Assembly (NCBI RefSeq): GCF_002113885.1
Contig: NW_018407700.1
Location: 3,075,038-3,139,037, forward strand
Origin: Mizuhopecten yessoensis
Lineage: Eukaryota
Reading direction: 5' to 3'
Length of the DNA: 64,000 nt
Below are positions 1 through 3,000 of this stretch, piece after piece. Every line of letters starts with the position of its first letter. Within the stretch, counting starts at the first letter, position 1. The position numbers were made by a program.

Positions 1-3000
1 TCCAAAGAAATCATCCGGCATATCCTTGACCACGTTGGTGTGTTCTTTACTGACATGGGTCTTCAGGTCTACTGCTCGCCTGAATAATCTGTCTTTAGGG
101 CACCAGCAACACACAACCTGAAGCACATTATGCAGGGCAGTGGACAGATGGTTTTTCAGGTCTCTCCTCTTATCGAACTTGGCAGGACACAACCAGCAGG
201 ACTCCATCATCTGTAAGATAGTAGGTAATGAAATATAGTTTTTCTGCTTGAATGGTACGTCATACATTTCCTCAATTGAAATCAGGACATCATTATTCTT
301 ATTTACAGCAGTACACATTGTCTGTCATTTGTGCCAGTCATCATTCCTCACATACAGGTAGGGTAAAAGCTCATCACACTCAACTTCATTTTATTAAGAA
401 AACATCCTTGTTTGAATATTGTTTTATTGAGACATCATTATGATCAGTCCAGTCCCTCTCCAACAAGGTCCCCGCTTGTAATATATTCCCTAATTACATG
501 CGTAACTCTGGTACAGTGCACGTGTTCACTGTATTTCCAGTAAAAAAATAAGTTGTGATCAATCTTAACTTTCACCTTAATTAACTCAACTGTCCTATTA
601 CTCAATGTGCATATAATCCATTATTAGCACTTCTCTATTTTTCTTTTTTTTCTTTTAGCTCATCTCAACATCAGACTGGTTTCTTTGGCCCTTCATATTT
701 ACGAAGTCTGTCAATATGATGCACCTTTGCTGGCTGTTTTAGACTCTTCTTCACCATGTATGTCACATCGTCTATTCGTCTTGTTATCAGGAATGGACCC
801 TTCCATCTCATTGTGAGCTTCTGGCAAACTCCGACCTTCCTGCGTGTGTCATGTACCCATACCAACTGACCTGCTTTAAGTGTTCTCTTCTTTGCTGTCA
901 GATCATAGTACCGTTTTTGATAGTCTGTTTTCTTTTTCAGGCACTTCCTTGCCATACAGTGGATGTGGTCAAGCTTGCTTTGTAGATCAAAGACATATTC
1001 ATCAGGTTCACACGACTCCTCATCACTGTCAGTTACTGGTCGTCCTATGACTGCCTGCATAGGGAGAGTTATCTCCCTTCCTAGCATCATTGAGTTTGGA
1101 GTTCTGCTTGTGCTCGCATGCTGTGAGGCCCTGTATGCCATCATCACCTGTGGAAGATATTGATCCCAACATCTTTGATCATCTTTGCAATATATGGTTG
1201 ACATGTTAGCCAGGGTTCTGTTAAATCTCTCAACATTGTCATTGGCTTGAGGTCTCATGCTTGTGGTTCTAGTCTTATCAATCTGAAATAAATCACACAT
1301 GTCCTGAAACAATTTGGATCCGAAATTGGAGCCTTGGTCAGAGTGAATTTGTAAAGGTGTTCCAAATCTACACAAAAAAATCATTGACAAATGCCTTTGC
1401 CACAGTTTTAGCTTCTTGATTGGCTATGGCTATAGCTTCAGTCCATTATGTAAAACAATCACAGATTACAAAGATGTATCTATTTCCACTTTCTGTCACC
1501 GGAAGTGGACCAAGAATGTCCACGGCAACTCTTTCCATAGGTTCACCGGTCAAATATTGCTTCATAGGAGCTCTATTTGATGCGTTCGAAGGTTTTCGTG
1601 CAGAGCATAAATCGCATTTGCGACAGTAGTTCTTTACAAAGTCTTTCATCATTGGCCAGTACAAACTTTTCTTGATTTTCTCTAATGTCTTGTCTGCACC
1701 CAAATGTCCAGCAGATGGAACATCATGGTGGTACTTCAAAATGTCTGCTTTTCTGTTTTCAGGAACTATCAGCTGAAGAACAGACTCGTCTCCATCATCA
1801 ATCATCCACTTTCTGTACAGCATGCCACCATGCATCTGAAGGCGATCCCAGTGTCTCCATAAAGTCTTGAGAGCTGCAGGATACTTTGAAACATCATTCC
1901 ATGTAGGGCGGTTACATCCACTTTCGAAAGCAGTCAGAATTGGCGCTATGTTTGGGTCAGTTAGTTGTTATTCTTTTATCTCATCAGGATTCCAATCAGA
2001 TAGTATGCTACACCCCATTGTTAAGTCACGCGCTTTCTGATTGTTATTCTGACTGCGTGTCACGACTCTAACAATGTTGCTCCTGACCGTGTCCTCAGGC
2101 ATTTCCTCAGCAGGACATAGGTTGTCATCTTCATCATCTATAAGGTTCCCATCCTGCTGCCTTGTGCAAACTTTACATGGATTACGGGATAATGCATCTG
2201 CATTTGTATGCTTCCGTCCAGGTCTGTGAGAAACAGACAGGTTGTATGTTCCTAATAGCTCCAACCACCGCGCAACTTGTCCAGTTGGATTCTTCAGATT
2301 TCTCATCCAGCTGACAGCAGCGTTGTCTGTTCTTAGCAATACTTCTTGACCATACAAATACGGATGGAAGGTTTTCAAGGCACAAACTACTGCCAATAGT
2401 TCTTTCCTTGTCACACAATAAGACTGCTCATGTTTGTTCATAGATTTGCTCATATATGCTATGACTCTTTCAGAACCTTCAAATTCCATTGGATAGAACT
2501 GCACCGACAACAAAAGCACTGGCATCTGTATCGAGGGTGAAGGACTTGTTTGATACTGGATACATCAATATTGGAGAGGTCACTAAAGCTCCCTTCAGCT
2601 GTTCAAAAGCAGTCTGGCATTCAGACGTCCATTTCAATTTAGCCCCTTTCTCACAGAGTTTGTGCATTGGGCGAGCTATTGCTGCAAACCCCTGTATGAA
2701 ACCTCGATATTAGGAACATAACCCAAGAAAACTTCGTATTTGTNGTTCAATTTAGCCCCTTTCTCACAGAGTTTGTGCATTGGACGAGCTATTGCTGCAA
2801 ACCCCTGTATGAAACCTCGATATTAGGAACATAACCCAAGAAAACTTCGTATTTGTTTTGCATTCTTGGGTACTGGCCAGTTTTTCACTGCAGAAATTTT
2901 GTCAGGGTCTGTGTGTATCCCATCTTCGGAAACAATGTGTCCCAAAAATTTAACTCTCCTCTGAAAGAAAACACACTTTGAGGGTTTGAGTTTCAAATTG

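Follow-up and report, generated by a model that had tools for sequence, protein, structure and literature searches.

The window analysed here, the whole 64,000-nt stretch of Mizuhopecten yessoensis DNA, is crowded with satellites and has no recognisable genes. Near its first base, on the minus strand, lie the remains of a Ty3/Gypsy retrotransposon and a short open frame that meets the window edge. The features, in the order in which they are read on the minus strand, are as follows.

4322..5603, minus strand: candidate 5' LTR (TGT...ACA, with TATAAAAG at 4840-4833), the sole copy in the window
4699..4707, minus strand: candidate splice donor TAG|GTATGC, matching 6 of 9 consensus positions
4301..4318, minus strand: PBS-like stretch that begins TGG, 3 nt past the candidate LTR end
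3090..4059, minus strand: gag, a long ORF whose PNMA/gag-like match is weak, with candidate starts at 4059 or 4016
671..3089, minus strand: pol remnant (Pfam) comprising an RT tail, RNase H, integrase zinc-binding domain, partial integrase core and SH3-like C-terminus
211..670, minus strand: spacer of 460 nt, A/T-rich, starting with a purine-rich, PPT-like run and then TG
211..233, minus strand: acceptor-like signal, a run rich in pyrimidines that ends in CAG just ahead of an ATG
1..210, minus strand: putative first 70 codons of a third gene, ORF3 (sequence and translation), with its own ATG at 210 and two C2H2-type fingers, the frame running past the window edge

The pol domains occur in the order RVT_1 tail, RT_RNaseH_2 (E 1.9e-15), RT_RNaseH (E 5.3e-23), Integrase_H2C2 (E 3.6e-20), rve (part) and SH3/Integrase_p58_C (E 3.3e-8), all on the minus strand, and this RT-RNase H-integrase order on one strand is that of Ty3/Gypsy elements (Metaviridae). 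The match to rve covers positions 59-100 only and that to RVT_1 only the last ~24 of 205 positions; most of RT is absent, and the window's minus-strand ORFs gave no Pfam match to a protease. The deletion of protease and of much of RT speaks to the state of this copy, not to its ancestry. The original prediction had both gag and pol broken, which holds for pol: the remnant contains five small breaks in ~2.4 kb, as well as a 113-bp tandem duplication around a single N. The gag ORF matched PNMA (E 4.4e-4) and zf-CCHC (E 0.036), both below cut-off, and direct reading finds in it one CCHC knuckle, C-x2-C-x4-H-x4-C. Searches across the whole window found no tRNA genes and no Rfam matches.

No second copy of the candidate LTR was found in bases 1-672 or elsewhere in the window, in agreement with the prediction that no 3' LTR precedes the open frame. 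A 3' LTR starting at the purine run after the integrase stop, with the run as its PPT, was considered and rejected: nothing in 1-672 resembles 4001-6600, and the spacer itself has no similarity to that region. The DNA after the PPT-like run is unlike the start of the 5' LTR. The run and the TG that follows it could nonetheless end the internal region and leave ORF3 outside, an observation that counts against the reading favored below. Troyka elements, given CG...CG termini in the available text of PMC12440569, were set aside as unrelated to the ORF3 question.

The integrase-bearing ORF ends with a stop codon at 673-671. After the 460-nt spacer (670-211), on the same strand, a tandem ATG-ATG at 210-205 opens a frame of 70 codons that runs without a stop down to base 1; this placement, the pyrimidine tract and CAG directly before the ATG, and the statement that the frame is neither gag-like nor pol-like are all borne out by the sequence and its translation. 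Stops are present in the same frame upstream, until ~120 nt before the ATG. The prediction also took the intactness of the frame, next to a broken pol, as a signal. At the break density of pol, a Poisson estimate gives a 210-nt stretch without a break ~65% of the time; the unbroken frame is thus expected by chance, is therefore no evidence of selection, and was given no weight.

Direct reading of the translation gives the two predicted fingers as C5-x2-C8-x12-H21-x5-H27 and C34-x2-C37-x14-H52-x4-H57. They are joined by a six-residue linker, NVLQVV, which we take to be unlike the usual conserved inter-finger linker. Across 25 sequences (the window peptide and 24 relatives), C8, H21, H27, C34, C37 and H57 are invariant and C5 and H52 are at least 90% conserved, placing all eight ligands in conserved family columns. 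Pfam zf-C2H2 (PF00096) scored 16.9 bits on the window peptide, below the gathering cut-off of 25.2; the best Pfam match was Zap1_zf1 (E 3.4e-4), and all C2H2 scores were sub-threshold. PF00096 was matched at E<=0.1 by 36 of 59 relatives (best 6e-6), and zf-met and zf-C2H2_jaz, both RNA-binding finger types, were each weakly scored in 5 of the 59. The AlphaFold2 model of the window peptide (pLDDT 92) has two beta-beta-alpha units and superposes on CTCF fingers that bind DNA in tandem (Foldseek probability as high as 1.00, with E only 0.015). CTCF was likewise matched by the family profile among PDB sequences (E 8.9e-5), a search that gave no match outside the fingers. The modeled peptide thus places putative Cys2-His2 metal ligands on a beta-beta-alpha fold. 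Its likeness to the host tandem fingers of CTCF, ZFAT, Tramtrack, ZBTB7A and KLF4 lies in that fold and those ligands; unlike them, it has only two fingers, with non-canonical spacing: finger 1 has H-x5-H, and in finger 2 the second Cys and the first His are separated by 14 residues. The sequence evidence supports the view that the frame is a genuine coding remnant with two C2H2-type fingers.

A phmmer search with the window peptide against 1.84 billion representative proteins returned 291 matches at E<=1e-3, 32 of them at E<=1e-10, with the strongest reaching E 1.3e-15 to 3.3e-26. The best match in a single stretch was P0002 (E 1.3e-15, 54% identity). Among the 150 of 291 matches listed, 60 are ordinary multi-finger proteins and 90 match in one stretch; for 77 of these 90 the similarity to P0016, P0011 or P0002 extends beyond the fingers, which defines a family represented by P0002, P0016, P0151 and their relatives, 24 of which entered the ligand alignment. 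The window peptide almost certainly belongs to this family. The frame is not a small zinc-finger ORF, since its 70 residues are the N-terminus of a family whose full-length proteins have ~450-720 aa. Among the same listed matches, 54 of the 77 members start within 10 residues of the window's Met, so the coding part needs no upstream exon. At least 400 aa are present in 36 of the 77, and the other 41 are shorter fragments, as expected for decaying repeats.

Named sources are all bivalve (Mytilus edulis, M. coruscus, Sinanodonta woodiana and Potamilus streckersoni), and their proteins are annotated 'uncharacterized' or 'hypothetical'; one member, P0157, carries the label of a bacterial symbiont MAG protein. 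Among the 150 matches listed the family forms 77 or more clusters (50% identity), and S. woodiana alone contributes three clusters with 26 member sequences. The relatives are thus multi-copy; single-copy host exons without a link to integrase were the outcome that the original prediction had named as damaging to it. Within the 64,000-nt window the family has a single copy (tblastn, all 163 proteins against the window), and the window DNA upstream of position 213 has no homology to the relatives by the same method. Searches of genome contigs with P0157 and with an eight-sequence family alignment gave 80 and 12 pattern matches, respectively, none of which was confirmed.

The full-length members share an architecture that opens with a basic domain of fingers and helices and continues with a small alpha/beta domain, a linker that is disordered and, at the C-terminus, a domain rich in alpha helix. 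For P0016, the AlphaFold2 model (pLDDT 79.9) has confident domains at residues 1-140, 156-261 and 390-547; the median net charge of the family's N-terminal domain is +7 (n=55), and 20 columns are invariant across 24 members. Foldseek searches with this model against PDB and BFVD gave no match at E<=1e-3, with only the fingers recognisable, and a search of the ESM Atlas with P0016 gave nothing at >=0.9 and no TM >=0.5. Pfam likewise recognised finger families only in the 59 members. Beyond the fingers, the family is thus predicted to have two confidently folded domains without a Pfam, PDB or viral-fold relative. The N-terminal 129 residues of P0012, which presumably have a dUTPase-like look, had no Pfam or PDB match. 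A TM-like window, defined as 19 residues of mean hydropathy >=1.6, is missing from 52 of the 59 members, and the remaining seven share no conserved feature that aligns them. There is no conserved membrane segment, so the ORF3 protein is not an Env.

Three relatives connect the family to Gypsy pol. In P0036, from M. coruscus, integrase parts match the window's integrase pieces (E 3e-36 and 8e-36; 49% identity), and the finger pair lies ~30 residues past the integrase, with ~26 residues between the integrase end and the ORF3 Met. P0010 has an integrase C-terminal fragment joined directly to the ORF3 start, and P0084 has an RNase H tail, matching the window's RNase H at E 1.6e-9, joined to the fingers. 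Order and strand in the window are the same as in these three proteins; the spacer differs in length, 460 nt in the window versus ~26 codons in P0036. The three are those with pol sequence among 103 single-stretch proteins examined. A family profile run against proteins of 1268-3620 aa found no longer fused forms, a weak negative. P0036 and P0010 resemble copies of a single Mytilus family, and a gene model may be a chimera. Because Gypsy pol pieces stand ahead of the fingers in three relatives, the third gene of a Gypsy lineage is the best reading of ORF3, and we consider it quite likely that ORF3 is part of the Gypsy element. Bases 210-1 of the minus strand are probably the start of a non-env ORF3, the third gene of a decayed Ty3/Gypsy retrotransposon, and the Gypsy lineage that carries it seems to be specific to bivalve molluscs.

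The two proposed splice signals fared differently. The donor TAG|GTATGC was found where predicted, at 4705/4704, ~105 nt after TATAAAAG, and does not stand out: of the 250 GT sites from 4810 to 211, 36 score as well or better, as do 6 of the 52 in the leader. The acceptor-like site before the ATG is outstanding, being the only one of 366 AG sites (counted on the element strand, 4700..1) with at least 15 pyrimidines in the 20 upstream positions and a pyrimidine at -3. We put the chance that ORF3 is made by spliced expression at about even, judging from these signals. In the mechanism we envisage, ORF3 would sit between integrase and 3' LTR, and its own ATG would start translation on a subgenomic mRNA that uses the CAG just before it as acceptor. 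Its product would be a nuclear nucleic-acid-binding accessory factor rather than an envelope, one that could regulate or export the element's RNA or else guide its DNA. Such an accessory role has an evens chance of being correct, and of its two forms we slightly favor regulation of RNA over targeting; that the protein is self-regulating, anti-silencing or targeting, as originally proposed, is conjecture.

Other explanations fit parts of these data. The finger-pair family could be a different repeated unit, either another type of transposon or an expanded multi-copy gene, lying beside the Gypsy copy in a repeat graveyard, in which case the Gypsy copy would be truncated 3' just after the PPT-like run. 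The setting lends itself to this, since the copy is heavily decayed and stands among satellites without recognisable genes, a PPT-like purine run and TG come right after the integrase stop, no 3' LTR or second LTR copy lies in the window, and 100 of the 103 single-stretch proteins have no pol part. However, stand-alone annotation would be expected if pol was repeat-masked before gene calling, and chance neighbors would hardly recur as they do: order, strand and closeness are repeated in P0036 (integrase identity to the window 49%), the arrangement is shared by P0010 and P0084, and the ~26 residues between integrase and ORF3 Met in P0036 leave no room for the terminus of another element. We regard a separate unit as unlikely. 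A single host zinc-finger gene, with the frame as its first coding exon and the CAG as acceptor of a 5'-UTR intron hit by a Gypsy insertion, would explain the strong acceptor-like site directly before the ATG, and NCBI models in Mytilus, Sinanodonta and Potamilus are indeed annotated as ordinary proteins. It is nevertheless improbable for a family that splits, at 50% identity, into 77 or more clusters among the 150 matches listed, that has several clusters with 26 member sequences in a single species, that consists of fragments by more than half, that is fused to pol pieces in three models and that matches no host protein family outside the fingers.

An envelope-type ORF3 as in errantiviruses, with the fingers incidental, would suit the position after pol on the same strand and the acceptor-like site, and for an ORF3 located after pol the usual assumption is an env-like protein, with expression from spliced messages (PMC5408684, in the part available). 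We consider it very improbable here, because the N-terminus is a zinc-finger domain and not a signal peptide, TM-like windows are missing from 52 of 59 members and conserved nowhere, and neither BFVD, which holds predicted viral structures, nor PDB gave a match at E<=1e-3. A chance origin of the open frame and its Cys/His pattern in A/T-rich junk might be suggested by the 70 visible codons and by Pfam scores that all fall below the curated cut-offs; it is refuted by the database matches (E 1.3e-15 to 3.3e-26 against 1.84 billion proteins) and by the eight ligands in conserved columns, the model's pLDDT of 92 also speaks against it, and its remaining probability is negligible.

The reading of ORF3 as a non-env third gene of a Gypsy element can be set beside known third ORFs. 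In errantiviruses and other metazoan Ty3/gypsy elements with an env, some of them in molluscs, env follows integrase as a third gene of the same orientation and is presumably made from a spliced, subgenomic RNA, according to the available text of PMC13524379. Unlike env, bivalve ORF3 has no signal peptide, conserved membrane anchor or fusion-glycoprotein fold, and it starts with zinc fingers. CERV of the C. elegans Gypsy/Ty3 element Cer1 is not Env-like; as described in the accessible part of PMC10309623, it has ~500 aa in structured domains and flexible linkers, with a cysteine-rich putative zinc finger, is made from a spliced mRNA, is nuclear, and is needed to export the element's genomic RNA. 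Bivalve ORF3 was set beside it by description, and the likeness is one of position and architecture only; CERV was not among the named matches of the searches. The first exons of CERV share the gag frame, whereas bivalve ORF3 starts at its own ATG, and CERV has a C4-type loop within its middle domain where ORF3 has an N-terminal C2H2 pair (PMC10309623, same part). The hosts also differ, a nematode versus bivalves.

Bdelloid rotifer LTR retrotransposons have non-env ORF3s, a GDSL lipase and a DEDDy exonuclease, typically with spliced messages, in the available text of PMC5408684. They are like bivalve ORF3 in being lineage-specific non-env third ORFs of metazoan LTR retrotransposons, but those of rotifers are recognisable enzymes common to other retroelement classes, whereas bivalve ORF3 combines a finger pair with two orphan domains; the word 'zinc' is absent from the main text of that paper. 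Plant Gypsy lineages, among them Retand, Ogre and Grande, have a long stretch between pol and 3' LTR with ORFs of unknown function, some of them reported to be nuclear (PMC11963269 and PMC8220671, in the parts available). Here the likeness is by description and the kingdom is different, and some of the plant ORFs are antisense or have their own promoter.

Non-env ORF3s in LTR retrotransposons are therefore known already; the new element is the C2H2-pair version with two orphan domains. We found no description of a C2H2 ORF3 in bivalve Gypsy elements in the titles, abstract starts and main texts (supplements aside) that were searched, and the main text of PMC6238403, on mollusc LTR elements, contains neither 'ORF' nor 'zinc'. 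A wider proposal, which we advance tentatively and hold to be possible rather than probable, is that a bivalve-wide Gypsy lineage carries an undescribed accessory gene whose product, of ~550 aa, combines a C2H2 pair at the N-terminus with two further domains that match no known fold. A spliced, subgenomic RNA would give rise to this protein, which would work in the nucleus on RNA or DNA of the element itself, either in export or expression, like Rev or CERV, or in guiding integration. It would be a new class of retroelement accessory protein, evolved independently of the retroviral and Cer1 ones.

The window itself contributes only a 70-codon stub in a dead element copy, and the wider interest lies in the family. 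Among the many non-envelope 3' ORFs in LTR retrotransposons, CERV of C. elegans is one for which a functional answer has been given (available part of PMC10309623). The bivalve family would give a second, independent system that is large, well conserved and confidently folded. It occurs in farmed, well-sequenced bivalves (mussels and freshwater mussels), and it pairs a nucleic-acid-binding module with two orphan domains. In public bivalve genomes its members appear as host proteins, either hypothetical or 'C2H2-type domain-containing'; should the genes belong to transposons, such labels mislead gene counts and analyses of zinc-finger families.

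The last open reading frame of the Gypsy copy, which bears the integrase and lies on the minus strand, has its stop codon at 673-671. An A/T-rich spacer of 460 nt (670-211) follows, and on the same strand an ATG-ATG at 210-205, directly preceded by a pyrimidine-rich run with a terminal CAG, starts a 70-codon open frame that leaves the window at base 1. The peptide of this putative third gene (ORF3) contains two C2H2 fingers, C5-x2-C8-x12-H21-x5-H27 and C34-x2-C37-x14-H52-x4-H57, separated by a 6-residue linker; Pfam gave C2H2 matches, all sub-threshold. In an alignment of the protein family described below, all eight zinc ligands fall in invariant or at least 90% conserved columns, and the predicted structure of the peptide consists of two beta-beta-alpha fingers (pLDDT 92). 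The original prediction, of a Gypsy element with a spliced third ORF, was accurate in everything it reported as seen: the two-finger frame and its distance from the integrase stop, the pyrimidine tract and CAG, and a TAG|GTATGC at 4705/4704. Its interpretation is supported in part.

The Gypsy copy has the following parts:

5603-4322, minus strand: candidate 5' LTR, TGT...ACA (sequence reading)
3 nt past the candidate 5' LTR, minus strand: PBS-like stretch starting with TGG (sequence reading)
~4059-3090, minus strand: gag, a long ORF that includes a CCHC knuckle (translation and Pfam)
~3089-671, minus strand: pol remnant (translation and Pfam)
~625-655, minus strand: purine-rich, PPT-like run followed by TG, immediately past the integrase stop (sequence reading)

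Pol is broken into six ORF pieces that occupy three frames and are separated by three frame changes and two in-frame stops. One large internal deletion has removed the protease and most of the reverse transcriptase, of which RVT_1 matched the last ~24 of 205 positions alone; the integrase core has also lost its first part, the rve profile being matched at positions 59-100 only. Pol further contains an exact 113-bp tandem duplication (2633-2856, 99% identity) with a single N (2744) between the copies; assembly at a gap could have produced it as an artefact. The claim that the third frame is intact while gag and pol are broken holds for pol; gag may carry one frameshift, at its 5' end, or none. 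At five small breaks per ~2.4 kb, a break-free 210-nt stretch is expected ~65% of the time (Poisson estimate), and the 'intact' frame is therefore no sign of selection. What the window carries is only a 70-codon stub of the gene, inside a dead copy.

Splice sites on the element strand were scored crudely, by counting matches to the consensus. The site before the ORF3 ATG is the only one of 366 AG sites (4700..1) with at least 15 pyrimidines in the 20 upstream positions and a pyrimidine at -3. The TAG|GTATGC proposed as donor, ~105 nt past TATAAAAG, agrees with the consensus at 6 of 9 positions, a score reached or exceeded by 36 of 250 GT sites overall and by 6 of 52 in the leader. Judged from sequence, the acceptor is a real lead and the named donor, an ordinary site, is not. 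A spliced message would have a non-coding upstream exon, and the ORF3 exon was therefore searched alone, without a joined upstream exon.

Searched exhaustively with phmmer against 1.84 billion representative proteins, the window peptide gave 291 matches at E≤1e-3, of which 32 reached E≤1e-10. Among the best 150 of the 291, 60 are ordinary multi-finger proteins with repeated finger matches and 90 match once. Post-finger parts of three relatives (P0016, P0011 or P0002) also matched 77 of these 90, which therefore form one family; the remaining 13, without a post-finger match, are mostly short fragments. Within the same best 150, 36 of the 77 members are at least 400 aa long (longest, 821 aa) and 41 are shorter fragments; in 54 the protein starts within 10 residues of the window Met position, which argues that the window ATG is the family's own start codon and not part of an internal exon. 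Named sources are all bivalve molluscs—Mytilus edulis, M. coruscus, Sinanodonta woodiana (three family clusters, 26 member sequences) and Potamilus streckersoni—and the deposited names are 'uncharacterized', 'hypothetical' or 'C2H2-type domain-containing'. The family is real, large and unexplained. One clear member, P0157, has the database label of a hypothetical protein from the bacterial MAG of a clam symbiont (Candidatus Thiodiazotropha taylori, 6129-bp contig); the label probably reflects host DNA binned with the symbiont, and a pattern scan of genome contigs did not find the locus.

The element could instead end at the PPT-like run, leaving ORF3 outside it, and the main point in favor of this is the run itself, with its TG, right after the integrase stop. 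However, the sequence past the run has no likeness to the candidate 5' LTR, including its start, so that we do not read the run as a 3' LTR border. The 64,000-nt window contains no second copy of that LTR. Evidence that ORF3 belongs to the element comes from relatives: pol-derived sequence lies ahead of the fingers in 3 of 103 proteins that match the finger peptide once. P0036 (M. coruscus, 507 aa) holds an integrase zinc-binding domain and integrase C-terminus that match the window's two integrase pieces (E 8e-36 and 3e-36, 49% identity), and its ORF3 Met and finger pair begin ~26 residues past the integrase end, a gap too short to leave room for the terminus of a second element. In P0010 an integrase C-terminal fragment is fused directly to the ORF3 start, a junction left by a deletion or else by a predicted intron, and in P0084 the fingers are fused to an RNase H tail that matches the window's RNase H (E 1.6e-9). 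Finger identity between the window and these three is 30-46%. Together with the window, they give at least three diverged cases of Gypsy pol followed, on the same strand, by an ORF3-family gene. That most members are annotated without pol would be expected if pol was repeat-masked before gene calling. Two scans of genome contigs found no DNA loci of ORF3-family relatives. Another member, P0012, has an N-terminal extension (residues 1-129) with no match in Pfam or PDB, which may be a further piece of the element's pol.

The sole recognisable genes in the window are those of the Gypsy element, and every long ORF outside it sits within the four large satellite arrays. The repeats are:

7513-7968 and 9448-9990: dispersed direct repeat pair, ~2 kb apart, 74-87% identity in three collinear blocks
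14842-15327: tandem array, 79 bp x6
22407-22823: tandem array, 157 bp x2.6
23761-24271: tandem array, 24 bp x21
25904-29452: satellite array, 20-bp unit x177
33984-37080: satellite array, G-rich 31/93-bp unit, GC 0.54, GC skew +0.69
42292-43909: satellite array, 17/51-bp unit
49437-52633: satellite array, 27-bp unit x112, with a single N at 52098 (one of two in the window, with that at 2744)

The dispersed pair may represent a short non-autonomous repeat in two copies. Between 6000 and 64000, no Rfam family reached its gathering score, tRNA genes were absent, and the 17 non-satellite ORFs of at least 85 aa had no Pfam match at E≤1e-3 except a sub-threshold BHD_1 within a tandem repeat. This region looks like gene-poor, repeat-rich chromatin.

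A non-env ORF3 in an LTR retrotransposon is already known, plant Gypsy lineages included; the proposed C2H2 form in bivalve Gypsy would be a new variant. Bdelloid rotifer elements likewise have non-env ORF3s, and env-carrying Gypsy elements occur in molluscs, according to PMC5408684 and PMC13524379, respectively. Our literature search found no account of bivalve Gypsy elements with a C2H2 ORF3, although supplements and Repbase-type libraries may hold such; in a mollusc LTR survey, the words 'ORF' and 'zinc' are absent from the main text (PMC6238403). The closest functional analogue is CERV, a protein of the C. elegans Gypsy/Ty3 element Cer1. As described in PMC10309623, CERV is a non-Env protein of ~517 aa whose coding sequence follows pol; it is translated from a spliced mRNA, contains structured domains joined by flexible linkers as well as a putative zinc finger, and is required for genomic RNA export.

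An AlphaFold2 prediction for P0016 from a 59-member alignment (pLDDT 79.9) has three confident domains: an N-terminal one (residues 1-140) in which the two fingers pack against helices, an alpha/beta one (156-261) and an alpha-rich one (390-547). A disordered linker, highly variable in length and composition across the family, sets them apart in the model. The model had no match at E≤1e-3 in PDB or BFVD, and outside the fingers nothing was recognised by a PDB sequence profile search, by Pfam on the 59 members or in the ESM Atlas. The N-terminal finger domain is basic, its net charge having a median of +7 (n=55), and a membrane-like segment is absent from 52 of 59 members; the protein is therefore not an Env. 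By structure comparison, the predicted fingers resemble DNA-binding tandem fingers. Finger 1 has H-x5-H spacing, and weak matches to the RNA-binding finger types zf-met and zf-C2H2_jaz were each obtained in 5 of 59 members. The ORF3 protein would serve the element as an accessory factor that acts in the nucleus and binds nucleic acid; a CERV-like role in RNA export or expression seems slightly more probable than one as an integration guide.
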